From positions 1 through 40,123 of the forward strand of contig JBBQTT010000001.1 of NCBI GenBank assembly GCA_038213035.1: DNA of 40,123 bases, written 5' to 3'. This DNA is from Candidatus Saccharimonadales bacterium (GTDB lineage: Bacteria; Patescibacteriota; Saccharimonadia; Saccharimonadales; Saccharimonadaceae). Shown here one piece after another: positions 1 through 40,123 of the stretch. Both the position numbers and the translations under genes were made by a program. The notes beneath the pieces are model-generated. The model saw only the letters and a list, made by a program, of their open reading frames with translations. It did no database searches and was not told where the DNA came from. The first letter of the stretch is position 1. Each line of letters starts with the position of its first letter.

Positions 1-58
1 TTCGTCATCCGGCTTCCGGCCTTGCGAACTGCCGACGTGGCAGTTCTCACCCGGATTG
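1..58 (-). repeat. tRNA-linked structured core repeat, copy A (continues beyond the window start)
   Basis: The reverse complement of 1-52 is GGGTGAGAACTGCCACGTCGGCAGTTCGCAAGGCCGGAAGCCGGATGACGAA. It aligns with the copies at 279-383, 18642-18745 and 29318-29421. It lies downstream of tRNA-Glu in the same orientation. A perfect 10-bp foldback CCGGATTGAA/TTCAATCCGG (51-74) is built from tRNA-Glu variable-loop and T-stem sequence. Confidence 0.8.
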
Positions 59-96: not shown

Positions 97-138
97 CAAA
101 GAAAAGGCCCCATCCGAAGGATGAGGCTTTTTCTTTGG
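97..138 (-). terminator. Hairpin immediately after tRNA-Glu whose stem includes the encoded CCA
   Basis: The minus strand reads CCAAAGAAAAAGCCTCATCC-TTCG-GATGGGGCCTTTTCTTTG. The outer CCAAAG pairs with CTTTGG-type sequence. The same design follows 5 other tRNAs in the window. Confidence 0.6.
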
Positions 139-210
139 TGATCTCACCGGGAATTGAACCCGGATTGCCAGGATGAAAACCTGGTGTCCTAACCATTAGA
201 CGATGAGACC
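136..210 (-). tRNA. tRNA-Glu (anticodon TTC), CCA encoded
   Basis: Manual cloverleaf, 75 nt. Acceptor GGTCTCA/TGAGATC, D stem GTCT/GGAC, anticodon arm CCAGG-TTTTCAT-CCTGG, T arm CCGGG-TTCAATT-CCCGG, then ACCA. Confidence 0.93.
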
Positions 211-254: not shown

Positions 255-383
255 GTTGCAGGACAGCCCTGGTGTCCTGTCACGATAAATTTTCTCCAAA
301 AATTTTCGCGACCTCGCCTCGCTTGGTTGCGTTCGCAATCCAGGCTCCGGCCTTGCGAACCGCCGACGTGGCGGTTCTCACCA
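255..383 (-). repeat. tRNA-linked structured core repeat, copy B (279-383), joined to a tRNA-Glu anticodon-arm-like fragment (255-278)
   Basis: The reverse complement is TGGTGAGAACCGCCACGTCGGCGGTTCGCAAGGCCGGAGCCTGGATTGCGAACGCAACCAAGCGAGGCGAGGTCGCGAAAATTTTTGGAGAAAATTTATCGTGAC. It is followed by AGGACACCAGGGCTGTCCTGCAA. Compare the tRNA-Glu sequence AGGACACCAGGTTTTCATCCTGGCAA. Confidence 0.8.
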
Positions 384-5409: not shown

Positions 5410-6774
5410 TTATTTAATTGGCAGACTAAACCCGAACGTACTACCCTTGCCTTGCACTGATTCAAAAATAATCTTGCCACCGTGCGAATCAATAACGGTT
5501 TTTGCCAGATATAAACCGACACCGGTACCATCAGGTCGTTGTTTTTTAGCATTGCTAGCACGATAAAACTTACTGAACAATTGTTCTTGTTCATCTGAAG
5601 GTACGCCGATACCTGTATCTTTGACGGTAAATATGACTTTGTTATTTTCAGCCGTCAGACTAATCTGAATTGATGTTTTTTCGTGACTGTAATAAAGTGC
5701 ATTGTCGGCAAAGTTCATAATCACCTGGCGAATTTTGCTTTCGTCAATTTCTAACATTGGGAAGTTTTTAGGTCGGCGGTAAACCAATCTTAAACCACGT
5801 GATTTAGCATTTGGTTGCAACCCATCAATTTCCTGCGCAACAACTTGCGATAAATCAGTTGGATGTCTGTCAACGATAAACTTCCCGTTTTGAATCCTAG
5901 AAACATTCAAGAAATCTTCGATTAAATGGACCATGCGTTCACTACTGGCAAATGCTTCATCCAAAAACTGACGTTGCGTTTCGTTAATCTCGCCCGCATC
6001 ACCTTCTAGTACCATGCTAATATAACCTTTGACACTAGTCAGCGGCGTACGTAATTGGTGCGACGCCATGCCAACAAATTCGTCTTTGGCCTTATCTAGT
6101 TGCAGCAAACGAACATTACTTGAACGAAGTTCTTTGGTTGCGTTTTCAATCCTCTGCTGTAAAGTTTCGTTGATGTCACGTACTTCTTTGATTGATAGTG
6201 TATTTTGAATAGCAATCACCAATTCGTCAGAAATTGCACTTAGAACCCGAATATCTCGGACTGTGTATCTGTATTTTTTGTGTCCACCTAAACATAAATA
6301 CCCAACAACGCCTGATTGAACCAGCGGTAATATTAAATCAATTCGATGACTAATCATTAAACGACGAATTGGGTCGTCATGATTCAATAATGTTACTGCA
6401 ATAACGCCGTGCTTTTTCTTGTCAGCATTTTGTAATTGCAAAGCGTCATCCCAAGGTAATTTAGTGTGACGATCAGTACCAGCAATAATGTGATGGCCAT
6501 CAAGTGTGTGAACAAAAAAGAATGCTTGTTGGCTTTTTAACGTTGTCGCTATCTCACCAGCTGCACGCTCAAGTAAACTGCGTAAATCAGTTGTAGTTGT
6601 GAGTGTTCGATTTAACCTGGCGAAAAACTCATCGCTATCATAATCATCTCTGTAAAAAACACTATTAGTTAATCTACCAAAAAACTTTTTGACAGGCTGA
6701 AAAAACATTAAACTGACCAAAACGCCCAGCAAAAAACATCCGACTACCACAATAGAAAGCATGAGCTCAATCAT
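5410..6774 (-). CDS. Sensor histidine kinase (1 TM, GAF-like domain, HisKA, HATPase_c)
   Basis: H-box MASHQLRTPLTSV, and N/G boxes NFADNALYYS, DTGIGV, GTGVGLYL. The central domain is paralogous to the kinase at 7199-9364. Confidence 0.92.
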   Translation of the reverse strand: MIELMLSIVVVGCFLLGVLVSLMFFQPVKKFFGRLTNSVFYRDDYDSDEFFARLNRTLTTTTDLRSLLERAAGEIATTLKSQQAFFFVHTLDGHHIIAGTDRHTKLPWDDALQLQNADKKKHGVIAVTLLNHDDPIRRLMISHRIDLILPLVQSGVVGYLCLGGHKKYRYTVRDIRVLSAISDELVIAIQNTLSIKEVRDINETLQQRIENATKELRSSNVRLLQLDKAKDEFVGMASHQLRTPLTSVKGYISMVLEGDAGEINETQRQFLDEAFASSERMVHLIEDFLNVSRIQNGKFIVDRHPTDLSQVVAQEIDGLQPNAKSRGLRLVYRRPKNFPMLEIDESKIRQVIMNFADNALYYSHEKTSIQISLTAENNKVIFTVKDTGIGVPSDEQEQLFSKFYRASNAKKQRPDGTGVGLYLAKTVIDSHGGKIIFESVQGKGSTFGFSLPIK

Positions 6775-18476: not shown

Positions 18477-18553
18477 GGGCCAGTAGCTCAGCTGGTTAGA
18501 GCACCTGCCTCTTAAGTAGGTTGTCGAGGGTTCAAGTCCCTCCTGGCCCTCCA
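18477..18553 (+). tRNA. tRNA-Lys (anticodon CTT), CCA encoded
   Basis: Acceptor GGGCCAG/CTGGCCC, anticodon arm CCTGC-CTCTTAA-GTAGG, T arm GAGGG-TTCAAGT-CCCTC, then TCCA. Confidence 0.93.
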
Positions 18554-18806
18554 AATAAAATAATCATCCATAAGGATGGTTATTTTATTTGGATGCTACG
18601 CAGGGGGGACTTAAAGCTTCGACAACCCTTGGGTTGTCTGAGGGTGAGAACCGCCACGTCGGCGGTTCGCAAGGCCGGAAGCCGGATGACGAACGTCACC
18701 GACTGAGGCGGGGTCGCGGAAATTTGCAAAGCAAATTATCTGTGGCTAATTCCCCGCTGGCCCTCCAAATTAAATATCCATCCTTCAGGATGGTTATTTA
18801 TTTTGG
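18551..18806 (+). repeat. tRNA-Lys-linked module, copy C: hairpin T1, inverted T-arm copy, direct variable-loop/T-stem copy, structured core, second tRNA 3'-end copy, hairpin T2
   Basis: T1 lies at 18551-18592. The inverted copy AGGGGGGACTTAAAGCTTCGACAACCC (18602-18628) approximates the reverse complement of tRNA variable loop plus T arm. The direct copy GGTTGTCTGAGGGT lies at 18632-18645 and the core at 18642-18745. TTCCCCGCTGGCCCTCCA (18750-18767) matches the tRNA 3' end GTCCCTCCTGGCCCTCCA. T2 (18765-18806) is homologous to T1. Confidence 0.85.
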
Positions 18807-18911
18807 AAGTGCTAGGCGATTGAAGTTTCGACTTGTCGAGTTTGCATTTTTTACAACACTCACTCTGTCACATATACCCTTTGCAAGGTTTATCCTTGCA
18901 AAAAAGCATAG

Positions 18912-19146
18912 GCAAAATAATAAACCCATCGATGATGAGTTTATTATTTTGGTACACCCGGACGGATATCGCCAGCAAACTGTCTCCTCCGCTCATTCGC
19001 GAAAAAATGTAAACACTTTTTCGCTCCAATCACTACGCCGAACCTGCCGACCTTAGATTTTGTAGGCAAAATCCAAGTCGGCGGTTCAGATTCGTATCGG
19101 CATGACCAAAGAAAACAGACTAGATATACTAGTCTGTTTTCTTTGG
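18912..19146 (-). repeat. tRNA-Arg(TCG)-linked module with a different insert
   Basis: All parts are read in tRNA sense. T1 lies at 19106-19146. The long foldback GAACCGCCGAC...GTCGGCAGGTTC (19040-19087) has a right arm that copies tRNA variable loop, T stem and TTCG. An insert of about 70 nt follows. An exact 18-nt copy of the tRNA 3' end ATCCGTCCGGGTGTACCA lies at 18950-17967 in error-free form as 18950-18967, matching 19144-19161. T2 lies at about 18912-18952. Confidence 0.85.
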
Positions 19147-19220
19147 TACACCCGGACGGATTCGAACCGCCGACCCTCTGTTCCGAAGACAGATGCTCTA
19201 ATCCACTGAGCTACGGGTGC
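19144..19220 (-). tRNA. tRNA-Arg (anticodon TCG), CCA encoded
   Basis: Acceptor GCACCCG/CGGGTGT, anticodon arm TCTGT-CTTCGGA-ACAGA, T arm GGCGG-TTCGAAT-CCGTC, then ACCA. Confidence 0.93.
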
Positions 19221-20737: not shown

Positions 20738-20779
20738 ACCCGCTTGCGATTAGACCCTAAAACGATTATGATTATAGTA

Positions 20780-21298
20780 ATGAAACGACGTGGGTTTACT
20801 ATCGTAGAGTTACTAATTGTTATCACTATCATGGGTGTCTTGTTAGTCTTAAGCGTTGCAAGTTTACGAAGCTCTCAAGCCAGCTCTCGTGACGTTGAGC
20901 GAAAAACCGATATAGAATCAATCGTTCTGGCATTAGATGATTATTATATAAATGGGTCAGACCTCAGCATAACTGTCGGTAAATACCCTTCAACATCACT
21001 AGTTAGCAATAACTTTACAATCAACGACCTAAAAAAGACCTTGCGTGATATTGATATAAAATCACTCACTGCCCCTAATGTCACCAACCCGACCACGACA
21101 TTCAAAGCCGCCGTCAATAATACACAAACGACAGCTGGTGTTTTACCGCAACCAACAGTTGATCAATATATTTATCAGCCGATAATGAACGATGGCACAT
21201 TATGCACCCTAGAATCTCAGGAATGTCGCAAATTTAACTTGTATTACAGATTAGAGGCAGATAACACCGTATATATGGTGACAGGAAAAAATCGATGA
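20780..21298 (+). CDS. Minor (pseudo)pilin with a prepilin-type N-terminal cleavage/methylation motif
   Basis: MKRRGFTIVELLIVITIMGVLL, where G|FT.E is the class III signal. I prefer the ATG at 20780 over the TTG at 20744. Confidence 0.85.
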   Translation: MKRRGFTIVELLIVITIMGVLLVLSVASLRSSQASSRDVERKTDIESIVLALDDYYINGSDLSITVGKYPSTSLVSNNFTINDLKKTLRDIDIKSLTAPNVTNPTTTFKAAVNNTQTTAGVLPQPTVDQYIYQPIMNDGTLCTLESQECRKFNLYYRLEADNTVYMVTGKNR

Positions 21299-21678
21299 AA
21301 AGCATATCTAAACAATCAGGCTTTACTGCTGTCGAATTATTGGTCACATTATTTATTGCCGCAGCATTTTTAATGTCTGGATATCAACTTTATAGTTTGA
21401 TTATGAAAGATGGTGGCGAAGTTCGTGCAACCGCCAAAGCCAGCAACGTAGTTTATGATTATATGCAACGATATAAACCATCAGCAACTAATCCTTGCAC
21501 CTCCCAAACACCTTTGACAGATTCAGCAATTACCGTTGATACATTGTCAAACACAACAATCACAGTCGCTATAACCTGCCCGTACAGCGCCACCCCGTCA
21601 TTATCTAAAATCACCGTCACAATGAAATATAACACCCCTCAACAAACAGTCAGCAATTCAACTTATGCCAAACCATAA
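21295..21678 (+). CDS. Minor (pseudo)pilin
   Basis: KQSGFTAVELLVTLFIAAAFL prepilin motif. There is a 4-nt overlap with the upstream pilin gene. Confidence 0.85.
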   Translation: MKSISKQSGFTAVELLVTLFIAAAFLMSGYQLYSLIMKDGGEVRATAKASNVVYDYMQRYKPSATNPCTSQTPLTDSAITVDTLSNTTITVAITCPYSATPSLSKITVTMKYNTPQQTVSNSTYAKP

Positions 21679-23461
21679 CAAATATCCCCGTAATTCCGGT
21701 TTCTCTTTGATAGAAATGTTGGTTGTAGCTCCAATTGTCATTCTGATGATTGGTATATTTGTTAGCGCAATTGTTGCGATGACTGGTGACGTATTGTCGA
21801 CGCGCAGCGCTAATTCCCTTTCGTACAATATACAGGATGCTCTGGACCGTATCGGTGCAGACATAAAATTAAGCGGCGGGCTGCTGGCAACAAATAATAT
21901 TATCTTGTCTTCGCCACAAGGTTTTAATAACGACACTACAAATTTTAAAAATGTTGACGCCACAAATGGCACGATGTTAATTTTAAACAGCTATACCACT
22001 ACTAGCAACCCATTAAATTCAACTCAAAACATACTTTATATGTCTAACCAGCCTAACCCCTGTGGAAGCGCGCAAATCAACCAAAACCCACCAGTCATGT
22101 TCAACACCGTCTATTTTGTAAAAAATAATACTTTATGGCGTCGAGTTATTGCGCCATCAAACTATGCAACTGTTGGCTGTTTAGGGGCATCTGTTGGTAT
22201 GCCCTGGCAACAACCCAGTTGTGCAACCGTAGTTGCAGGCACAATCTGTAAAACTCTAGACCAAAGATTGGTTGATAATGTCGCCACAAATGGTTTTATT
22301 GTTAGTTATTACACGAACAACAATTCTACCGTGCCAAATGCTACCGCCAGCGATAACACTAAATCTAATAGCGTCAGACAGTCAGCATTACAAACATCCA
22401 GTACGGTCAGTGTAACTATAAATGCCACCGCAACCGCAGCAGGGCGCACCGCCACCCAAACTGGCACGATTCGCGAAATTAGCCCGAATAATAATATCAA
22501 TTCAACTGCCGATACAATGTGGTCATCATTTAACATGCAAAATAGCTGGGTTGATCATGGGGGGGAATACTTTCAAAATGGTTATCGCAGGACCAAGGAT
22601 GGTGTTGTTGTATTACACGGTTTATTGCGAAGAAGTAGTGGGTCAATAGTGTCCGGCGAAATAATCGGGACCCTACCAGTCGGGTACAGACCATCCGAAC
22701 AATTAATATTCCAAACTAGTACAAACCCAAATGCAGCATCACGTGTTGACGTTTGTACAGATGGAACTGTACGCGTACTATCTGGTGATCCAGGATGGCT
22801 ATCACTCGACGGTATAAAATTCTTGTCATCCGATGCACCAGTCGTATTCACAAATTTAACGCCACAAAATAATTGGGTACCATACGGATCACCATTTTCA
22901 GCACCAGCTTATGCAATTGACGCAGACGGTAGAGTGCATGTAAAAGGGCTCGTAAAGAATGGCGTGGTCACAGACGGAACACCAATAGTTACCTTGCCTG
23001 TTGGCTATCAGCCATTAGAATACAATCATATAGCAGTCGACAATACCGGTGCGTCTGGTTTTATTGGAGTTGATACAAATAAAAATATTGTTGCAAAAGG
23101 TGGAGCTAACGGATATCTATCGTTACAATCAATATTTTATACTTCAAGCTACACCGATTGGCATGGTATGACATTACAAAACGGGTGGGTTTATTATGGC
23201 TCAAGCCTTACTACACCCGCATACACCAAAGCAACTGATGGACTTGTTAGTTTGAAAGGATTAATCAAAACCGGAACAGTAGGAACTACCATAACTACCC
23301 TTCCAGCCGGTTATAGACCAGCCCAAAGGATTTTATATCACAGTGTCAGTTCTGGTGTTTACTATAGATTAGATATCAACAGTAACGGCGATGTTATTTG
23401 CGTATCAGGCAACAACGGTTGGATGTCACTGGACGGAGTTGTATTCTACGCCGATAATTAA
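21665..23461 (+). CDS. Large minor pilin-like protein with three tandem C-terminal repeats of about 100 aa (candidate tip adhesin)
   Basis: RNSGFSLIEMLVV prepilin-like N-terminus. The repeats span aa 286-388, 395-492 and 499-596. They share W...QN.W..YG......Y....DG.V.L.GL...G......I..LP.GY.P ... G...LSL(D/Q). Confidence 0.85.
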   Translation: MPNHNKYPRNSGFSLIEMLVVAPIVILMIGIFVSAIVAMTGDVLSTRSANSLSYNIQDALDRIGADIKLSGGLLATNNIILSSPQGFNNDTTNFKNVDATNGTMLILNSYTTTSNPLNSTQNILYMSNQPNPCGSAQINQNPPVMFNTVYFVKNNTLWRRVIAPSNYATVGCLGASVGMPWQQPSCATVVAGTICKTLDQRLVDNVATNGFIVSYYTNNNSTVPNATASDNTKSNSVRQSALQTSSTVSVTINATATAAGRTATQTGTIREISPNNNINSTADTMWSSFNMQNSWVDHGGEYFQNGYRRTKDGVVVLHGLLRRSSGSIVSGEIIGTLPVGYRPSEQLIFQTSTNPNAASRVDVCTDGTVRVLSGDPGWLSLDGIKFLSSDAPVVFTNLTPQNNWVPYGSPFSAPAYAIDADGRVHVKGLVKNGVVTDGTPIVTLPVGYQPLEYNHIAVDNTGASGFIGVDTNKNIVAKGGANGYLSLQSIFYTSSYTDWHGMTLQNGWVYYGSSLTTPAYTKATDGLVSLKGLIKTGTVGTTITTLPAGYRPAQRILYHSVSSGVYYRLDINSNGDVICVSGNNGWMSLDGVVFYADN

Positions 23462-23466
23462 TCCAA

Positions 23467-23496
23467 TTGTGCTAAACACAAAAAATATAGTATATT
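23467..23496 (+). promoter_or_regulatory. Candidate promoter of pilin gene 1 (TTGTGC box plus TATATT)
   Basis: TTGTGC at 23467-23472, an 18-nt spacer, then TATATT at 23491-23496. The same TTGTGC(T) box precedes all four pilin paralogs. Confidence 0.45.
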
Positions 23497-23526
23497 ATAA
23501 CCATAACCAATATCTGGGGGGCTTTC

Positions 23527-24057
23527 ATGATTAACAGAAACATCGATATCAAAAAATCACACGGGTTCACAATCGTAGAACTGCTGGTTGTTATCGTTGT
23601 CATCGGTATCTTGGCCGCTATTACGATTATTTCTTATACTGGTATCTTGCAAAGGGCCAATACTACCAAGGCCCTCAGTAACGCTCAATCAGCCCAAAAC
23701 GTAGCTGAAATCTATTTTTCAGATAAAACCGCATACCCAGTTACAACTGGCGACTTCAGTCGTGAAGACATAAGCGCTCAGTTGCCTTCAGGGGTAATAA
23801 TTGCACTTGGCCAAGGCGGTACGCTTGCAGGCGGATGGACTGGTGTCGAACCACTCAACCTACTGCCGGATTCAGATAAAACGATGACGGTAACATGGGC
23901 ATGTTCAGGTGGTACAGCAAGTGACAGCAACTGCGTTGGTGCAACTGGTGGCAAGATTACATATTGGGACTTTACTGGCACACCAGCCGTATCCACAAAC
24001 ATTCTTTACGTTGGTATGGCTAAATCAACTTCGACTTTTTTCACACCTTCTTCGTAA
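23527..24057 (+). CDS. Type IV pilin (PilA-like) paralog 1
   Basis: KKSHGFTIVELLVVIVVIGILAAITIISYTG. A GGGGGG SD lies upstream, and there is a C-terminal Cys pair. Confidence 0.9.
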   Translation: MINRNIDIKKSHGFTIVELLVVIVVIGILAAITIISYTGILQRANTTKALSNAQSAQNVAEIYFSDKTAYPVTTGDFSREDISAQLPSGVIIALGQGGTLAGGWTGVEPLNLLPDSDKTMTVTWACSGGTASDSNCVGATGGKITYWDFTGTPAVSTNILYVGMAKSTSTFFTPSS

Positions 24058-24082
24058 AACAACAGATTATAAATATAATAAA

Positions 24083-24113
24083 AATAGGACCTGCGAAAGT
24101 AGGCCCTATTTTG
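24083..24113 (+). terminator. Terminator hairpin after pilin 1
   Basis: AATAGGACCT-GCGAAAGT-AGGCCCTATT followed by TTGT, with one mismatch in the stem. Confidence 0.55.
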
Positions 24114-24120
24114 TATCACA

Positions 24121-24155
24121 TTGTGCTTGTGTTTATAAAATTAGTAAATTATAAT
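24121..24155 (+). promoter_or_regulatory. Candidate promoter of pilin gene 2
   Basis: TTGTGC at 24121-24126 and TTGTGT at 24127-24132. A 17-nt spacer leads to TATAAT at 24150-24155. Confidence 0.5.
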
Positions 24156-24198
24156 GTTATCAGTTCAGCTATATAAAAAATTAGGGAGGCAACAGAAC

Positions 24199-24759
24199 AT
24201 GACAAATACAACAAACGTAATCAAAAAAGAACGCGGTTTCACAATCGTAGAACTTTTGGTTGTTATCGTTGTTATCGGTATTTTGGCGGCGATTACTATC
24301 GTTTCTTATACTGGTATCACAGCCAAGGCAAATGCAGCTGCCACAAAACAAATGGCATCTAACATTATCGCTAAAGCCGGTATCTATCAAACAGAAGGTT
24401 CAACACTTAACTGGCCACTAACAGGTGCGCTTGCTATGTCAGCAACCGATTCATCATCGGCTATTACTGGTATAACGGTACAAAATGGCGCAACTTTAGC
24501 TGCTGCAAGTATGACAAAGATTTCATACCAGGTCTGTGGTACTACATCACAGACTGGTGCTGTTTTCACAGCACCAGCTAACTTAGCAGCTATTACTAAC
24601 CCAACCGGCGTTATTGTTGGATACTGGGATTACAGTCTAGCAACACCAGCACAAGCTACATTGTCCGCTGGAAACGCAGCCGCAGGTACAGCTGGACCAT
24701 ACATTTCAGGTGGAACAACATACGCAAACCTTGTTGCATGTTACTACACAGCTAGCTAG
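24199..24759 (+). CDS. Type IV pilin paralog 2
   Basis: A GGGAGG SD lies 8 nt before the ATG at 24199. The sequence is MTNTTNVIKKERGFTIVELLVVIVVIGILAAITIVSYTG, with GYWDY and a Cys pair near the C-terminus. Confidence 0.9.
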   Translation: MTNTTNVIKKERGFTIVELLVVIVVIGILAAITIVSYTGITAKANAAATKQMASNIIAKAGIYQTEGSTLNWPLTGALAMSATDSSSAITGITVQNGATLAAASMTKISYQVCGTTSQTGAVFTAPANLAAITNPTGVIVGYWDYSLATPAQATLSAGNAAAGTAGPYISGGTTYANLVACYYTAS

Positions 24760-24781
24760 TTAATATAACTAAATAGCTTTT

Positions 24782-24807
24782 AAACCCCCAGAAAACTGGG
24801 GGTTTAA
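24782..24807 (+). terminator. Terminator hairpin after pilin 2
   Basis: AAACCCCCAG-AAAA-CTGGGGGTTT. Confidence 0.7.
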
Positions 24808-24859
24808 ACATGCCAATACAATAATGCTATTAACTCATAATAAAAACTCACGATATCGC

Positions 24860-24888
24860 TTGTGCTAATAACGATGACATAGTATTAT
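24860..24888 (+). promoter_or_regulatory. Candidate promoter of pilin gene 3
   Basis: CGCTTGTGCTAAT contains TTGTGC at 24860-24865. A 17-nt spacer leads to TATTAT at 24883-24888. Confidence 0.5.
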
Positions 24889-24938
24889 ATTACTATTATA
24901 ATTATAATTAAATTACATTTCATAGGGGGCTTTAAAAA

Positions 24939-25433
24939 ATGATGTCAATCAACACAATTAATAACCAGAGCCACGGTCTTACGATCATAAAACATTCAGG
25001 AAAACTGAATCACGGTTTCACAATCGTAGAACTGCTGGTTGTTATCGTTGTTATCGGTATTTTGGCAGCGATTACTATCGTTTCTTATACTGGAATTACC
25101 GCCAAGGCTAATACAACTGCTAATAAAAATAATGCCAACAGCGTTCGTCGTGTAGCGCAAATAGTATATACTAATACTAGTTCATTCCCAGTAACAAACG
25201 CCACTTCAGCTACAGTAATTGCTGCATTGAATGCTAGCGATGCTAAGATCCCATCAGGTCTTACTGTAACAAACGGTGCCGTAGCATCAGGATCAGCTAT
25301 CACTTACGTACTTAAGGGTGCAACAGGCATCTGTGTTGGATACTGGGACTACAGCGGTGCTGGTTCAGCAGCTTGGTTGTACGCCGGTGACGCAACAACA
25401 GGTACCAGCGGTACACCTTCAACTTGCGCTTAA
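24939..25433 (+). CDS. Type IV pilin paralog 3
   Basis: GGGGGC SD. The sequence is NHGFTIVELLVVIVVIGILAAITIVSYTG. It is a close paralog of pilin 4 (SSFPVT.ATSATVIAALN.SDAKIPSGLTVT, GICVGYWDYS). Confidence 0.9.
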   Translation: MMSINTINNQSHGLTIIKHSGKLNHGFTIVELLVVIVVIGILAAITIVSYTGITAKANTTANKNNANSVRRVAQIVYTNTSSFPVTNATSATVIAALNASDAKIPSGLTVTNGAVASGSAITYVLKGATGICVGYWDYSGAGSAAWLYAGDATTGTSGTPSTCA

Positions 25434-25441
25434 CAAAACGC

Positions 25442-25475
25442 TTGTGCTAATGTAAATTTTGTAGTAAATTATAAA
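25442..25475 (+). promoter_or_regulatory. Candidate promoter of pilin gene 4
   Basis: CGCTTGTGCTAAT is identical to the box before pilin 3. The -10 is either TAAATT (25465-25470) or TATAAA (25470-25475). Confidence 0.4.
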
Positions 25476-25500
25476 CATAATAAATAATTAGGGGGCACAC

Positions 25501-25947
25501 ATGACACAAGGAAATATCAAAATCAAAGAACGCGGTTTCACAATCGTAGAACTTTTGGTTGTTATCGTTGTTATCGGTATTTTGGCAACGATTACTATCG
25601 TTTCTTATACTGGTATCACAGCTAAAGCAAATACAGCTGCTAACAAACAAAATGCAAGTAGTGTTATTGCTACTGCTCAAATCGTTTACGCTAATACAAG
25701 TTCATTCCCAGTAACAAGCGCTACTTCAGCTACAGTAATTGCTGCATTGAATTCTAGCGATGCTAAGATCCCATCAGGTCTTACTGTAACAAGTACATCT
25801 GTGACTTCAGGCACAGCTACTGCGCTTTCCTACCGCCAAAAAGCTAATACTGGTATCTGTGTTGGATACTGGGATTACAGCATTCCTGGCGTAGCTTACC
25901 TATTCGGTGGCGATGCAACAGCTGACAACGGTACAGCCTGTTCATAG
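25501..25947 (+). CDS. Type IV pilin paralog 4
   Basis: AGGGGG SD. The sequence is KERGFTIVELLVVIVVIGILATITIVSYTG. The 5' region of about 100 nt is near-identical to pilins 2 and 3. Confidence 0.9.
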   Translation: MTQGNIKIKERGFTIVELLVVIVVIGILATITIVSYTGITAKANTAANKQNASSVIATAQIVYANTSSFPVTSATSATVIAALNSSDAKIPSGLTVTSTSVTSGTATALSYRQKANTGICVGYWDYSIPGVAYLFGGDATADNGTACS

Positions 25948-27387: not shown

Positions 27388-28917
27388 ATGACAAACGATG
27401 ATTATAAAGTTAAAATCGGAACCTTAATTCAAGATACCAGACAGTCACGAGGACTAACCCAAGCCCAACTGGCAAAAGCCTTAAACACTAGTCAAAGTGC
27501 GATTAATCGCATCGAAAAGGGTGGACAAAATATCAGCCTTGAGATGTTGGCCCGTATTAGTGACGTTTTGTCAAGCGAACTTGTCACCTTGAATCAATCT
27601 GGAAAAATCAATTTCAGCATCAATGGCGGCAAAAAACTATCAGGCGATATTGAAGTTAAAACCAGCAAAAACGCTGCTGTTGGCCTACTTTGCGCCAGTT
27701 TATTGAACCATGGCACGACAACTTTGCGCCGAGTCGCCCATATCGAAGAAGTTAACCGTATTATTGAAGTATTACAAAGTATTGGCGTCAAAGTTAAATG
27801 GCTAAATGACAGAAACGACCTGGAGATTACTCCACCAGCCAGATTAAAACTGGATAGTATGGATATTAAAGCTGCCCAAAAGACCCGAACAGTAATTATG
27901 TTGCTGGGACCCCTGTTGCACCAATACAAAGAATTTAAACTACCATTTGCCGGTGGATGCAACCTGGGAACACGCACCGTTGAACCTCATATGACAGGCC
28001 TGGCGCCGTTTGGTTTGAACGTCGAAGCAACTGGTGAGTATTATCACGCTACTGTCACCAAAAAGGCCGTTACGCAGACTATCCTATTAACAGAACGTGG
28101 CGATACCACGACCGAAAACGTCATCATGGCGGCTGCCCTTTATGATGGTGAAATTACTATTCGAAACGCCAGCCCAAATTACATGGTCCAAGATTTATGC
28201 TTTTTCTTGCAAAAGTTAGGTGTCAAAATTGAAGGTATCGGCACGACTATTTTAAAGATTCACGGTGTTCGTAGCATTAATAAAAATGTCGAATACTATC
28301 CTAGTGAAGACCCAATCGAAGCTATGAGTTTAATTGCCGCCGGCATCGTCACCGATTCTGAAATAACAGTCAAACGAGCGCCGATTGAGTTTATCGAAAT
28401 CGAACTTGCCATCCTTAAAGGAATGGGTCTGCAATACGAAGTTAGTGCTGAATATCCAGCCCGAAACGGCGAAACCAGACTAGTTGATATCAAAATATTA
28501 CAATCAAAATTAAAATCCCCCAAAGACAAACTACACAGCATGCCGTTCCCTGGTGTTAATATGGACAACTTACCTTTCTTGGGCCTAATAGCTACCACTG
28601 CCCAGGGTCGGACCCTCGTACATGATTGGTCATACGAAAACCGTGCAATTTATTTTACAGAACTTAGCAAATTAAACGCCGGTATAGAATTAGTTGACCC
28701 ACACCGAGTTTATATAACTGGTCCAACCAAATGGAAACCTGCCGATATCGTTACTCCACCAGCTTTGCGTCCATCCGTTGTTATATTACTAGCCATGTTG
28801 GCCGCACCAGGGCGATCGATATTACGCGACGTATATTCAATAAATCGCGGCTATGAAGATTTTGCCAACCGATTAAATACGTTAGGCGCCGATATTGAAA
28901 CCTTGCGCGAGATTTAA
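27388..28917 (+). CDS. Fusion protein: N-terminal XRE-family HTH (aa about 10-65) plus a MurA-like UDP-GlcNAc 1-carboxyvinyltransferase (aa about 73-509)
   Basis: The HTH is RGLTQAQLAKALNTSQSAINRIEKGGQNISLEMLARI. MurA-like marks are KTSKNAA, LGPLL, FAGGCNLGTRTVEPH (Cys191 at the expected catalytic position) and YENR. It is a single uninterrupted ORF. Confidence 0.85.
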   Translation: MTNDDYKVKIGTLIQDTRQSRGLTQAQLAKALNTSQSAINRIEKGGQNISLEMLARISDVLSSELVTLNQSGKINFSINGGKKLSGDIEVKTSKNAAVGLLCASLLNHGTTTLRRVAHIEEVNRIIEVLQSIGVKVKWLNDRNDLEITPPARLKLDSMDIKAAQKTRTVIMLLGPLLHQYKEFKLPFAGGCNLGTRTVEPHMTGLAPFGLNVEATGEYYHATVTKKAVTQTILLTERGDTTTENVIMAAALYDGEITIRNASPNYMVQDLCFFLQKLGVKIEGIGTTILKIHGVRSINKNVEYYPSEDPIEAMSLIAAGIVTDSEITVKRAPIEFIEIELAILKGMGLQYEVSAEYPARNGETRLVDIKILQSKLKSPKDKLHSMPFPGVNMDNLPFLGLIATTAQGRTLVHDWSYENRAIYFTELSKLNAGIELVDPHRVYITGPTKWKPADIVTPPALRPSVVILLAMLAAPGRSILRDVYSINRGYEDFANRLNTLGADIETLREI

Positions 28918-29249: not shown

Positions 29250-29298
29250 GTTGGTTTTTGCCTTTGTTTGATTATATTATACGCAATATCTAGTGAAT

Positions 29299-29494
29299 GT
29301 GCTAATGACGGGGATTGGTCACGATAAAAATCATTCTAATTTTTTCGCGACCCCGCCTCAGTCGGTGACGTTCGTCATCCGGCTTCCGGCCTTGCGCAGT
29401 GCAGACTTGCACTGCTCACCCGCTACCACCGCGGGTTCAATACCCGTAACGTTCCAAATAAAAAAGAAGGCATAAAGCCTTCATTTTTATTTGG
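29299..29494 (-). repeat. tRNA-His-linked module, copy D
   Basis: All parts are read in tRNA sense. T1 lies at 29454-29494. The inverted T-arm copy ACGGGTATTGAACCCGC lies at 29431-29447. The direct copy GGTAGCGGGT lies at 29418-29427 and the core at 29318-29421. CAATCCCCGTCATT (29304-29317) equals the tRNA-His T-loop/acceptor segment at 29499-29512. Confidence 0.85.
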
Positions 29495-29569
29495 GGCGAA
29501 TGACGGGGATTGAACCCGCTACCTTCGGAACCACAACCCGACGCTCTAACCAGATGAGCTACATTCGCC
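29492..29569 (-). tRNA. tRNA-His (anticodon GTG) with encoded G-1 and CCA
   Basis: G-1 plus acceptor GCGAATG/CATTCGC, discriminator C, anticodon arm TCGGG-TTGTGGT-TCCGA, T arm GCGGG-TTCAATC-CCCGT. An upstream TGtTACAAT forms an extended -10. Confidence 0.92.
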
Positions 29570-29748: not shown

Positions 29749-29980
29749 AAGAAAAAAGTTGTGTCCCTGGATACAACTTTTTTCTTTGGTATGTGTTGGT
29801 GAATCGAACTCTCATCGACGATTCGCTGTCCAGCGAAGAGTCAGATGAGAGTTCGTGAAGCGCCGTGCAGCAAAATCAGTTTACTTATTTTGCCAACAAG
29901 CGAAAATAGGGAATGAAATGACCGCCTTCTCTCCGCCCACACCAAAGAAAAAGAGATTCGTTGAATCTCTTTTTCTATGG
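29746..29980 (+). repeat. tRNA-Gly-linked module with a different insert
   Basis: T1 lies at 29746-29789. The inverted copy GAATCGAACTCTCATCG (29801-29817) is the perfect reverse complement of the tRNA segment CGATGAGAGTTCGATTC. The direct copy GATGAGAGTTCG lies at 29844-29855 and a 71-nt insert at 29856-29926. TTCTCTCCGCCCACACCA (29927-29944) matches the tRNA sequence TTCTCTCCGCCCGCACCA. T2 lies at 29942-29980. Confidence 0.85.
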
Positions 29981-31239: not shown

Positions 31240-31329
31240 AAATAAAATAATCAGCCAATGGGTTGATTATTTTATTTTGATTCCAGGGATTGGATTGAAC
31301 CAACGACCGCCTGACAACCCAGGGTACTA
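31237..31329 (+). repeat. tRNA-Arg(TCT)-linked minimal module (no long insert)
   Basis: T1 lies at 31237-31279. The inverted T-arm copy GGGATTGGATTGAACCAACGACC (31286-31308) approximates the reverse complement of the tRNA segment GGTCGTTGGTTCAATTCCAACCC. After GCCTGAC comes AACCCAGGGTAC (31316-31327), which equals the tRNA 3' end at 31226-31237. Confidence 0.75.
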
Positions 31330-38936: not shown

Positions 38937-39012
38937 CGGGGTGTGGCGCAGTTGATAGCGCGCTCGGTTTGGGACCGAGAGGTCGAAGGTTTGAGTCCTT
39001 TCACCCCGACCA
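38937..39012 (+). tRNA. tRNA-Pro (anticodon TGG), CCA encoded
   Basis: Acceptor CGGGGTG/CACCCCG, anticodon arm CTCGG-TTTGGGA-CCGAG, T arm GAAGG-TTTGAGT-CCTTT, then ACCA. A TATAAT lies at 38914-38919. Confidence 0.9.
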
Positions 39013-40123
39013 AGAAGTATTTTCGCTTAAATCCACCATCAAGTCGTATGGTGGATTTAGCTTTATAACAGATATAAAGTCGTCATTTGCTCGGAGGTTC
39101 AACACCACCTCACGATAGACTAAATCTTCTTCGACCACATCGGTCGTTTTTAGTATCGTTTCCAGATACGAATTGATGAGTTCAACAAATTCTTCACGAG
39201 TCGGCAATGCGTTACTCAATCGTATCTTTTCTTCCTCTAATTTAGCGATGAGGTCTTCAATGGAGATGATTTGAGCTTGATGAAAATCTAATTTGCCGTT
39301 GTGGTATTGTTTGTATTCAACAGGGTTGGATACTTGGAAATTCTGATATTTTGAGTAGTAATCTCTCTGGAGTTTTAGGTCATTTTTAGCATCTGCTAGC
39401 TTACGCCTGACAGTCGCTCGCTTAACGACTACATCACTCTCTATGCGGTCTATATATCGCTTATGAGCTTCACCTACATTTTCCGTAAGATGTCTTAGAG
39501 TCCACTCGATATGAGCATTTACAAATTTAGCTCTAATCCCTTTGGGTAGTTTGTGGCCATACTTCAGAATAGCTTCCTTATCATTATGGCGAATACACTC
39601 TTTATTGCGACAATAAAAGCTAAATAGCCATTTGCCCTTATTTTTACCACGCTGAAGCTTGGTTCGCTGGAACGTCATAACCCTATCGCAGAAATCACAA
39701 ATGACTTTTTCTCGTAGCAATCCAAACTCTAGCCGTTGTGCTACATTGCCACGACCTCTAAATTCTTTATCAAAACTACTCGCTATATTGCGACCAAGCG
39801 TTATAAATTCGTCTGGTGTTATCAGTGGCAAGAAGTTGTACTGGTCGTTTAAGTTAGAGATGTTATCACCGTGCTTATAAACGCCAGTGTAAAACTCGTC
39901 TGTCAGAAAATCCGACACCATATTCTTAGTCATTTTAACTAGCTTATACTCGTCCTGTTCGGTCTTACGAACGCTCAAATGAGAATCGTTAAGGAAGTCG
40001 GCTATATATTCACCGGTAGCTCGGTCATTTAGTCTCATCAGGACGGCTTTACGCAGTAATTGCCAATTATGACTATCTGGCATATAGTAGCCTGTCGCAG
40101 AGTCCTTATAGTAGCCTTTTTTG
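39001..40123 (-). CDS. Large serine recombinase (integrase), C-terminal portion; the 5' end lies outside the window
   Basis: The reading frame is open to the window edge. It has a recombinase-domain-like region, a zinc-ribbon CDFCDRVMTF...YCRNKECIRH, and a coiled-coil-rich C-terminus. The stop codon lies inside the 3' end of tRNA-Pro. Confidence 0.75.
   Translation of the reverse strand, partial: KKGYYKDSATGYYMPDSHNWQLLRKAVLMRLNDRATGEYIADFLNDSHLSVRKTEQDEYKLVKMTKNMVSDFLTDEFYTGVYKHGDNISNLNDQYNFLPLITPDEFITLGRNIASSFDKEFRGRGNVAQRLEFGLLREKVICDFCDRVMTFQRTKLQRGKNKGKWLFSFYCRNKECIRHNDKEAILKYGHKLPKGIRAKFVNAHIEWTLRHLTENVGEAHKRYIDRIESDVVVKRATVRRKLADAKNDLKLQRDYYSKYQNFQVSNPVEYKQYHNGKLDFHQAQIISIEDLIAKLEEEKIRLSNALPTREEFVELINSYLETILKTTDVVEEDLVYREVVLNLRANDDFISVIKLNPPYDLMVDLSENTSWSG

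Follow-up and report, generated by a model that had tools for sequence, protein, structure and literature searches.

Many tRNA genes of Candidatus Saccharibacteria are accompanied by partial copies of themselves, and these copies are interrupted by a short structured sequence, here called element X (family 1). X is one family in a superfamily of small (85 to 105 nt) structured elements that contain no open reading frame (ORF) and have so far been found only in Saccharibacteria. More than 180 copies were found in at least 29 Saccharibacteria genomes and in metagenomes, about 85% of them within 300 nt of a tRNA gene on the same strand, with flanks that copy that tRNA. We tentatively favor the interpretation that X is a structured, non-autonomous element, site specific and sense oriented, whose survival is restricted to dispensable duplicates of nearby tRNA genes. 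In these bacteria, the genome measures about 1 Mb and the tRNA genes are single copy; even so, around 40% of the sampled tRNA loci carry extra partial copies filled by these elements, a substantial and previously unreported feature of genome architecture. We found no description of X in the literature searched on tRNA-linked elements of Saccharibacteria or Patescibacteria.

Element X at three tRNA loci

The window, that is, the whole stretch of 40,123 nt that was analyzed, is an ordinary segment of a Saccharibacteria chromosome that encodes MurB, SHMT, FolD, a phosphoketolase, MurT/GatD, a ClpB-like protein, and many pilins. A fragment of a serine-recombinase gene adjoins its tRNA-Pro gene. 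Searched with Rfam at the gathering threshold, the whole window gave seven tRNAs and nothing else.

The intact tRNA-His(GTG) gene (29,492 to 29,568, minus strand) was recognized by ARAGORN and by the Rfam tRNA model (61 bits). It is followed by an intrinsic terminator that is bidirectional, with an A-tract, a hairpin, and a T-tract (29,466 to 29,482, both strands), and then by an inverted copy of the 3' part of the tRNA (29,431 to 29,456, minus strand). The inverted T-arm piece proper occupies 29,431 to 29,447 and matches the T arm of tRNA-His at 16 of 17 positions, where shuffled sequences gave an expectation of 0; it is preceded by TGG and AACGTT, with which the inverted part extends to 29,456. 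After a short loop comes a direct copy, GGTAGCGGGT (29,418 to 29,427, minus strand), of the variable loop, the 5' strand of the T stem, and T54. Its last three nucleotides, GGT, coincide with the conserved 5' GGU of X. The His copy of X is 103 nt long (29,318 to 29,420, minus strand; covariance-model hit of 116 bits, E = 4e-22) and runs from GGUGAG through hairpin A to CGCAAG, and then through a central arm (GCC/GGA/AGCCGG-A-UGAC-GAAC-GUCA-CCGACU/GA/GGC) and GGG to hairpin D, which ends in GUGAC. The direct copy is then resumed by CAATCCCCGTCATT (29,304 to 29,317, minus strand), which covers C56 to position 69 of tRNA-His (the remainder of the T loop, the 3' strand of the T stem, and the start of the 3' strand of the acceptor stem). 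These 14 nt are identical to positions 29,499 to 29,512 of the tRNA gene, giving two matches in the window against 0.02 expected. Beyond CAATCCCCGTCATT, the flank diverges into the −35 box of the promoter of the next gene. A sequence-only reading of this DNA had proposed exactly this order of inverted T arm, direct copy, core, and 3' copy; every piece is present at the locus, and the similarity of the flanks to the tRNA is well beyond chance. The reading had also placed the core where a T-loop nucleotide is missing. At the junction, the second T of GGGTTC is indeed absent, so that one tRNA nucleotide is missing when the T before GAG is assigned to the flank and two are missing when it is assigned to X.

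The same layout had been claimed for tRNA-Lys and tRNA-Glu, and it was recovered at both. The intact tRNA-Lys(CTT) gene (18,477 to 18,553, plus strand; ARAGORN and Rfam) is followed on the same strand by an inverted and diverged copy of its variable loop and T arm (18,603 to 18,628), a direct copy of the variable loop and 5' T stem with one extra T (18,631 to 18,645), and a copy of X (18,643 to 18,746; 115 bits with the covariance model). The 3' flank (18,747 to 18,767, plus strand) begins with TAATTCCCC, one base earlier than had been noted, and consists of a diverged T-loop remainder and 3' T stem followed by the exact 3' strand of the acceptor stem with CCA. A second, diverged copy of the terminator (18,778 to 18,793) and a third, partial inverted unit (18,804 to 18,832) lie 3' of this module.

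The intact tRNA-Glu(TTC) gene (136 to 210, minus strand; ARAGORN and Rfam) is flanked by X on both sides. Downstream, on the same strand, an inverted copy of the T arm (67 to 88) and the direct copy CAATCCGGGT (49 to 58) precede a copy of X that matched the covariance model and is cut by the end of the window (1 to 51). Upstream, a fourth copy in the window (279 to 382, minus strand; 113 bits with the covariance model), which the sequence-only reading had missed, occupies the D loop of the 5' half of a pseudo-tRNA-Glu: positions 380 to 398 correspond to tRNA positions 1 to 19, and 259 to 278 to position 21 onward, with the anticodon arm remodeled into a hairpin. Thus, even within the window, the T loop is not the only site of X.

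Distribution and modular composition

Copies were collected with a pattern taken from the center of X, which was applied to species-representative genomes and to metagenomes. The genome scan gave 80 loci, with about 68 real copies in at least 29 species genomes; all of these belong to Candidatus Saccharibacteria/Saccharimonadales or are metagenome-assembled genomes of the same kind. About 12 pattern matches outside Saccharibacteria were dropped as chance matches inside conserved coding sequence. The metagenome scan gave at least 120 loci, with about 115 real copies among the matches listed, four matches having been dropped on the same grounds. The copy number per genome ranges from several to more than 10. 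The pattern scan returned no copies from named oral Saccharibacteria, and there was no X in viral contigs, phages, or plasmids, where the only matches were 35-nt chance matches in Sinorhizobium plasmids.

A 5' module (GGUGAG-hairpin-CGCAAG) and a 3' module (GGGG-GUCGC-loop-GUGAC) are common to all members of the superfamily and enclose interchangeable central arms; the lengths of the elements cluster at 85 to 90 and 100 to 105 nt. Hairpin A, the central arm, and hairpin D are combined variously across loci and genomes, which indicates that the modules recombine. None of 220 superfamily elements contains an ORF, and a search of 200 loci for an autonomous, ORF-bearing relative with the shared end motifs found none.

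Secondary structure of X and possible host function

The alignment of 61 distinct copies showed that X folds into three hairpins, A, the central arm, and D, joined by the linkers GG, AG, and GGG. Hairpin A (UGAG...CGCA) has a variable stem of 8 to 10 bp and a variable loop, the central arm has the consensus GCC / GGA / AGCCGG-A-UGAC-GAAN-GUCA-CCGACU / GA / GGC, and hairpin D (GUCGCGA...UCGUGAC) is preceded by GGG. In these copies, 97.7% of the 2,194 cells are paired, and 25 of the 36 pairs vary on both sides in a compensatory manner. None of 500 shuffles attained the observed values, pairing fell to 25 to 48% when the 3' partners were slid as a control, and RNAalifold, run independently, recovered identical helices. 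A G-U wobble in hairpin D is conserved in 58 of 61 copies, and hence only the tRNA-sense strand of X folds. The unpaired motifs GCAAGGC, GGA, GGAU, CGAA, and GAGG are invariant across at least 29 species. In copies with a long hairpin D, an unpaired A lies 7 or 8 nt before the 3' end (at −8 or −9), and the 3' terminus is AC (e.g., AUCGUGAC); there are also families with a short hairpin D that have no bulged A. With three arms and linkers of 2, 2, 3, and 0 nt, X is modeled as a cloverleaf-like four-way junction that would form wherever the flanks pair, as they should in the T-loop copies because there the flanks are the T stem.

No family in Rfam 15 matched X when the whole window was searched at the gathering threshold. 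The region from 29,250 to 29,500, searched at E values up to 10, yielded only terminator-like and snoRNA noise, and six loci in which X lies in non-tRNA contexts yielded nothing relevant. Readings of the core as a hammerhead, HDV, twister, or hairpin ribozyme or as a C/D-box RNA were rejected on visual inspection, because the motifs involved (CUGA.. and AUGACGA) covary away in a second variant of the central arm. A pseudoknot between the 5' GGUGA and UCACC found no support in variant copies.

The conservation of this fold raises the possibility that X is a structured RNA domain with a function for the host, for example, a protein-binding or processing module in the leader and trailer transcripts of tRNAs, which spread long ago and whose copies have been kept by selection. 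The tRNA-like flanks would then only supply promoters, terminators, and a stable scaffold. The strong covariation, the invariance of the unpaired motifs across at least 29 species, and the sense-only orientation all agree with such a role, as do the duplicated tRNA promoters that precede the upstream copies. A GCC-G-GA...GA-GGC internal loop resembles a tandem G-A, kink-turn-like motif and is a putative protein site. Moreover, a distinct lineage of hairpin D, found in 5 of 11 copies upstream of tRNA-Gln and in 3 of 177 others, still shows compensation in hairpin A and at the terminal pair, and the change of the terminal pair from G-C to C-G is confined to this lineage. Single-stranded motifs that do not vary, together with such locus-specific compensation, are more suggestive of a working RNA under selection at fixed loci than of selfish DNA in decay. 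However, many copies are truncated, have a central arm swapped for unrelated sequence, or are broken by nested copies, and orthologous tRNA loci differ in the presence of X. The downstream copies stand behind strong terminators and have no promoter of their own, which makes their expression uncertain. A single function would hardly justify at least 20 redundant copies per genome of about 1 Mb, and the lack of copies from named oral Saccharibacteria in the pattern scan also speaks against it. We therefore consider a host-functional RNA domain unlikely as the explanation of X.

Insertion sites and junctions

Among the metagenome matches listed, about 115 copies are real. Of these, 98 have a same-strand tRNA gene no more than 300 nt away (69 copies downstream and 29 upstream of the gene), and one lies near a tRNA gene on the opposite strand. 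The genome loci show the same association, nearly every copy being about 100 nt or less from an intact tRNA gene. The proposal that the insert is shared while its flanks copy the local tRNA holds for tRNAs with at least 27 anticodons. In every T-loop copy examined, over many tRNA identities, the junction falls exactly between tRNA positions 54 and 56, so the consistency of junctions that the sequence-only reading had wanted checked in further copies was found. Its conclusion that T loops are targeted generically was too narrow. X also occupies D loops (Glu, Gln, Phe, Ser, and Ile copies), anticodon loops (Glu and Leu copies), the junction of the acceptor and D stems (Gly copies, GCGGGT-X-TAGCTC), an antisense T arm (L024 and L159), hairpins unrelated to tRNA in two contexts, and other copies of X. 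Its orientation is sense relative to the tRNA-like host sequence.

These sites share a GG just ahead of X, and at each of them X takes the place of about two nucleotides. Of 68 copies, 65 have G immediately before UGAG and 56 have G at the second position before it; AG rarely takes the place of GG. When the element is defined as UGAG...GUGAC, every site with a known uninterrupted sequence shows two nucleotides replaced, namely, UU in the three kinds of tRNA loop (T, D, and anticodon), UG at the acceptor junction, GU where copies are nested, and AC in the antisense T loop. As a target, GG by itself is far too weak to account for the confinement of X to tRNA-like and X-like sequence. The ends of X are not terminal inverted repeats, since in 63 copies only 0 to 4 of the first 12 nt agree with the reverse complement of the 3'-terminal 12 nt. 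Target-site duplications were likewise not found: identical 2- to 5-mers flank 3 of 63 copies, and instead 1 or 2 nt of the target are absent. To our knowledge, the replacement of two nucleotides fits no characterized transposition chemistry.

The position of the T-loop copies might also be read as the scar of an island that was integrated at a tRNA gene by an integrase and then lost, the partial tRNA being attR and X an end of the island. The attR pieces left by tRNA-targeting integrases run from the T loop to the 3' end of the tRNA, and the X modules resemble attL/attR in that a direct repeat of the 3' part of the tRNA, starting in the T loop and reaching the 3' end, is displaced downstream of a restored tRNA gene. 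The recombinase fragment beside tRNA-Pro in the window might be taken in the same sense. Unlike in attL/attR, however, no island or integrase lies between the repeats, and tRNA sequence flanks X on both sides. The whole unit is only 170 to 280 nt long and has no ORF, nested copies exist, and the viral and phage collections hold no match. With at least 27 anticodons and with sites in D loops, anticodon loops, the acceptor junction, and non-tRNA sequence, the attP of an integrase specific for a single tRNA is excluded, as had been argued from the window, and the integrase scar as a whole is largely refuted and can be regarded as highly improbable. Junction models based on an integrase, a serine recombinase, an integron attC site, or IS91 were also considered, and none of them yields the observed left and right junctions.

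Partial tRNA copies

The downstream modules have a common order: the tRNA gene, a terminator, TGG with the inverted 3' part, a loop, the direct variable loop and 5' T stem, X, the sequence from C56 to CCA, and a second, diverged terminator. Some of them end with a further partial inverted unit, as at 18,804 to 18,832 in the window and in L050. Direct, inverted, and direct parts thus form a zig-zag whose turning points are the terminator and the variable loop. The upstream modules differ in being tandem direct repeats of the promoter and the 5' part of the tRNA, with inserts in every unit but the last (L027 and L046).

The direct copies track the species-specific T arm of the neighboring tRNA. 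Beside tRNA-Arg(tct), the copy matches its own neighbor at 21 of 21 positions in L050, at 20 of 21 in L071, and over the first 14 nt in L035. Since the three tRNA-Arg(tct) genes differ among themselves, the duplications are derived from the target and not carried by the element, in agreement with the sequence-only reading. The inverted copies decay without compensation.

A downstream copy of the sequence from C56 to the 3' end was present at 89 of 226 tRNA loci, and 78 of these 89 copies directly follow a GTGAC-type end, the remainder being preceded by other inserts or by variant ends. Upstream, each of the 57 5' copies is interrupted by some loop insert. None of the 226 tRNA loci had an uninterrupted partial copy. 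The partial copies appear to be older than the individual inserts, because orthologous tRNA-Arg(tct) modules hold different families at different T-loop positions. The absence of uninterrupted copies would be explained equally well if duplication and insertion were coupled in a single step.

Evidence for independent insertion

We found at least 10 nested insertions, all at a single site (GGCGGG/GU/CGCG), involving three inner families, three outer families, and no fewer than eight tRNA contexts. Two different families share the pseudo-tRNA-Gly of L046, the first in the D region and the second in the T loop. The sequence-only reading had asked whether related genomes differ in the presence of the insert, and such polymorphism exists in the orthologous tRNA-Arg(tct) modules, which have the same loop hairpin: family 1 follows T54 in L035, L050, and L071, a different family follows G57 in L068, the window contains a deletion remnant (31,283 to 31,327), and L007 has no insert. 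Truncated or decayed copies also occur (e.g., L064). Together, nesting, double insertion, the tRNA-Arg(tct) polymorphism, and truncation indicate that X has been inserted independently. Empty and filled versions of the same site were not found together in any single species; the case for insertion is therefore comparative, and no event was observed directly. Tandem copies that suggest insertion into the 5' GG of another X (L110, L142, and others) are better explained by deletions.

A partner that could move X was not apparent. No transposase, reverse transcriptase, or other candidate was linked to X, and the 40-kb window contains no tnpA, tnpB, Y1 transposase (TnpA or RAYT), reverse transcriptase, or guide-RNA effector.

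Comparison with known elements

REP/BIME sequences, Rickettsia palindromic elements, Correia and BOX elements, and MITEs are about 100 nt long, ORF-less, multicopy, rich in hairpins, and composed as modular mosaics. Rickettsia palindromic elements can reside inside RNA genes, and for small structured bacterial repeats in general, the mobilizing activity is obscure or supplied in trans. X resembles these elements in size, lack of an ORF, copy number, hairpins, and mosaic composition. It differs from them in having no terminal inverted repeats, no target duplication, and a single orientation relative to the host transcript, in its GG target with about two nucleotides replaced, in its residence almost exclusively in partial tRNA copies next to the cognate intact gene, and in unpaired motifs that are invariant across species. 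As for MITEs in particular, the 220 elements of 85 to 105 nt are short, ORF-less, and multicopy, as MITEs are, and lack the inverted repeats and target-site duplications by which MITEs are recognized.

X shares with IS200/IS605-derived (PATE) and REP elements the hairpins near both ends, the strand-specific folding with G-T/G-U pairs, and the absence of inverted repeats and target duplications. IS200/IS605 insertion is seamless, whereas target nucleotides are lost with X; only GG is conserved upstream rather than a tetra- or pentanucleotide, and the right hairpin ends exactly at the boundary of the element. A 3' flank identical to the empty target would recall the guide that follows the scaffold of a TnpB omega-RNA. 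However, the 3' flank of X matches over 8 to 21 nt, and the match is often only 8 to 10 nt, shorter than the at least 16 nt taken to mark a TnpB/IscB-type guide. In their behavior, REP/BIME sequences, Rickettsia palindromic elements, and IS200/IS605-derived elements are the closest to X.

The transposed tRNA introns of archaea provide another parallel. In Thermoproteales, related introns occur in the D, anticodon, and T loops, sometimes two per tRNA, and are shared between tRNAs, just as related inserts of X occupy several noncanonical positions across tRNAs. X differs in that its host is a bacterium and that the host copies are truncated pseudogenes, and its junctions, with the ends GUGA... 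and ...GUGAC, cannot form the bulge-helix-bulge of archaeal introns.

X could also be a miniature intron-like RNA element, comparable to the group III introns of Euglena or to ORF-less derivatives of group II introns, that enters abundant RNAs (tRNAs and X transcripts) by a reaction like reverse splicing and is then reverse transcribed and recombined beside the parent gene. Several features recall group II and group III introns and twintrons: the size of about 100 nt as in group III introns, the 5' end GUGAG, in copies with a long hairpin D the conserved unpaired A in the 3' hairpin before the terminal AC, nesting, and the sense orientation. The 3' hairpin with its unpaired A resembles domain VI of group II introns. 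The targets are the most abundant structured RNAs, and the downstream module of TGG, inverted part, loop, and direct part resembles a snap-back cDNA of the 3' part of the tRNA primed by the terminator hairpin. Nevertheless, there is no domain V: the candidate AGC motif covaries to GCC in the second central-arm variant, so that a domain V-like central arm was rejected. The Rfam models of group II and group I introns were not matched even at E values up to 10, and, unlike a group I intron, X ends in C and not in a 3'-terminal G. Variants with a short hairpin D and no bulged A still occur nested. X was absent from every complete gene examined, no intron-encoded protein was found, and the window contains no reverse transcriptase. 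Excision, unlike the splicing of group II or III introns, would leave the T loop 1 or 2 nt short, and the second terminator copy beyond the 3' flank suggests that the template was genomic and not a mature tRNA. An intron-like element is accordingly improbable.

Possible mechanism and significance

We return to the tentatively favored interpretation, a non-autonomous element that persists in tRNA duplicates. X has been inserted many times independently, in the sense orientation, directly after GG (rarely AG), with about 2 nt replaced. Its sites are the exposed loops and junctions of tRNA-like sequence, a few other hairpins, and one fixed site in copies of X itself. As tRNA genes are single copy and essential, an insertion into a working gene would probably be lost, and consequently X would persist only in the dispensable partial copies beside an intact gene. 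The partial copies may have originated locally, by a fold-back zig-zag downstream and by tandem duplication of the promoter and 5' half upstream, and gene conversion may keep the direct copies close to the parent tRNA. They would then be saturated landing pads in which each permissive site is now occupied. The sense-only orientation and the strand-specific folding suggest that the target is recognized as a single-stranded nucleic acid of the transcribed sense, which might be either RNA, followed by reverse transcription, or the displaced nontemplate strand of DNA. The putative mobilizing enzyme would be supplied in trans.

It is possible, if rather doubtful, that X is instead an RNA-level entity of an undescribed kind, namely, a small RNA of cloverleaf topology with three arms and a closing helix borrowed from the host arm, which is either mobile via RNA or a tRNA-scaffolded functional family. 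In the first case, X might enter abundant RNAs (tRNAs and X transcripts) at their exposed loops, either by itself or through another agent, and return to DNA by snap-back reverse transcription beside the parent gene. In the second, it would be a family of functional RNAs scaffolded on tRNA and expressed from tRNA operons.

The combination of RNA-like covariation, sense-only orientation, exact junctions with the loss of two nucleotides, self-nesting at a fixed site, and exclusive residence in tRNA-derived sequence is not known from any other element. Movement through RNA would make X a minimal retroelement or intron-like tRNA parasite of a new type; a working X RNA would instead add an abundant new class of noncoding RNA to a phylum that is poorly understood. 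As an RNA-level entity, X would found a new class of genetic elements linked to tRNAs in ultrasmall, episymbiotic bacteria.

Partial tRNA copies and their inserts can also mislead tRNA annotation: in L021, ARAGORN called a false tRNA-Gly of 87 nt that spans one of the junctions of X.

Contexts of X outside tRNA-derived sequence

X, the structured element of about 103 nt and three hairpins known from partial tRNA copies beside intact tRNAs in Saccharibacteria, was also found outside tRNA-derived sequence. At four loci (L097, L134, L160, and L191), it lies within conserved non-tRNA surroundings extending about 60 nt on each side, in the order CACGGGTGGC..GGCGG, X, AGCACCC.., the hairpin AAATGGTAATCCATTT, and CAGGGGCGGACCGGGCGACAGGACCCGC. 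This context had no family match in Rfam and may represent an unrecognised small RNA of Saccharibacteria. At L017/L179 and L104, a long hairpin (CAGTCTAATC...GATTAGACTG) carries X in its loop, and the loop segment, X included, is flipped relative to the hairpin arms between L017/L179 and L104, as would be expected if the inverted arms had recombined with each other.

Other inserts in the downstream modules

In the window, downstream of tRNA-Arg(TCG) (19144-19220), we observed the usual module architecture with an insert other than X, which we named family 3 (18950-19101, minus strand). On this strand, the module comprises an inverted copy (19077-19101), a direct T-arm copy (19039-19051), the insert core containing GAGCGAAAAAGTGTTTACATTTTTTCGC (18999-19026), placed 3′ of GGTTCG in the direct copy, and ATCCGTCCGGGTGTACCA (18950-18967) 3′ of the insert. 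Relatives of the family-3 insert are present at L068, L048, L073, and L189.

A further module of the window lies on the downstream side of tRNA-Gly(TCC) (29798-29880, plus strand). Its inverted T-arm copy (29798-29817) is followed on the same strand by a 16-nt mini-hairpin, TTCGCTGTCCAGCGAA (29822-29837), and the direct copy GATGAGAGTTCG (29844-29855), after which TGAAGCG... resembles the start of family 3. This mini-hairpin recurs in D loops of pseudo-tRNAs at L002, L027, and L063, where it takes the place of 3 nt, and it is also present within an X copy (L061) and in non-tRNA surroundings (L160).

The turn from the inverted to the direct variable-loop/T-stem copies is formed by a small AT-rich hairpin, TTTTTGnnnnnCAAAAA, in L035, L050, L068, and L071, all at tRNA-Arg(tct), and in L034 at tRNA-Pro(tgg), and is common to modules of two different tRNAs. 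Downstream of tRNA-Arg(TCT) in the window lies a remnant module (31283-31327, plus strand), in which the inverted T-arm copy runs straight into GCCTGAC, with which the L068 family-3 insert ends on its 3′ side, and then AACCCAGGGTAC. The remnant looks like the product of a deletion between two CGACC repeats.

Annotation and neighboring genes

X-bearing modules can corrupt automatic tRNA annotation: at L021, ARAGORN called a false 87-nt "tRNA-Gly" (6359-6445) bridging the 5′ part of the pseudo-tRNA and the start of X. A weak covariance-model match in the window (20995-21070, minus strand; 17.9 bits, E 0.04), starting with AGUGAG-hairpin-CGCAAG, is located among the clustered pilin genes and probably arose by chance. 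The regions 20744-25947 and 27388-28917 together hold at least six genes in a row with the N-terminal methylation motif of type IV pilins and, separately from these, a gene for an EPSP-synthase/MurA-family enzyme with a Cro/C1-type HTH domain fused at its N-terminus.

Of the domains that make up large serine recombinases, the "Recombinase" and zinc-ribbon ones are present in an ORF (39001-40083, minus strand) adjoining tRNA-Pro (38937-39012), and the N-terminal catalytic one is absent. The stop codon of this ORF and the 3′ end of the tRNA overlap, and the ORF may mark the edge of an integrated element extending past the window end.
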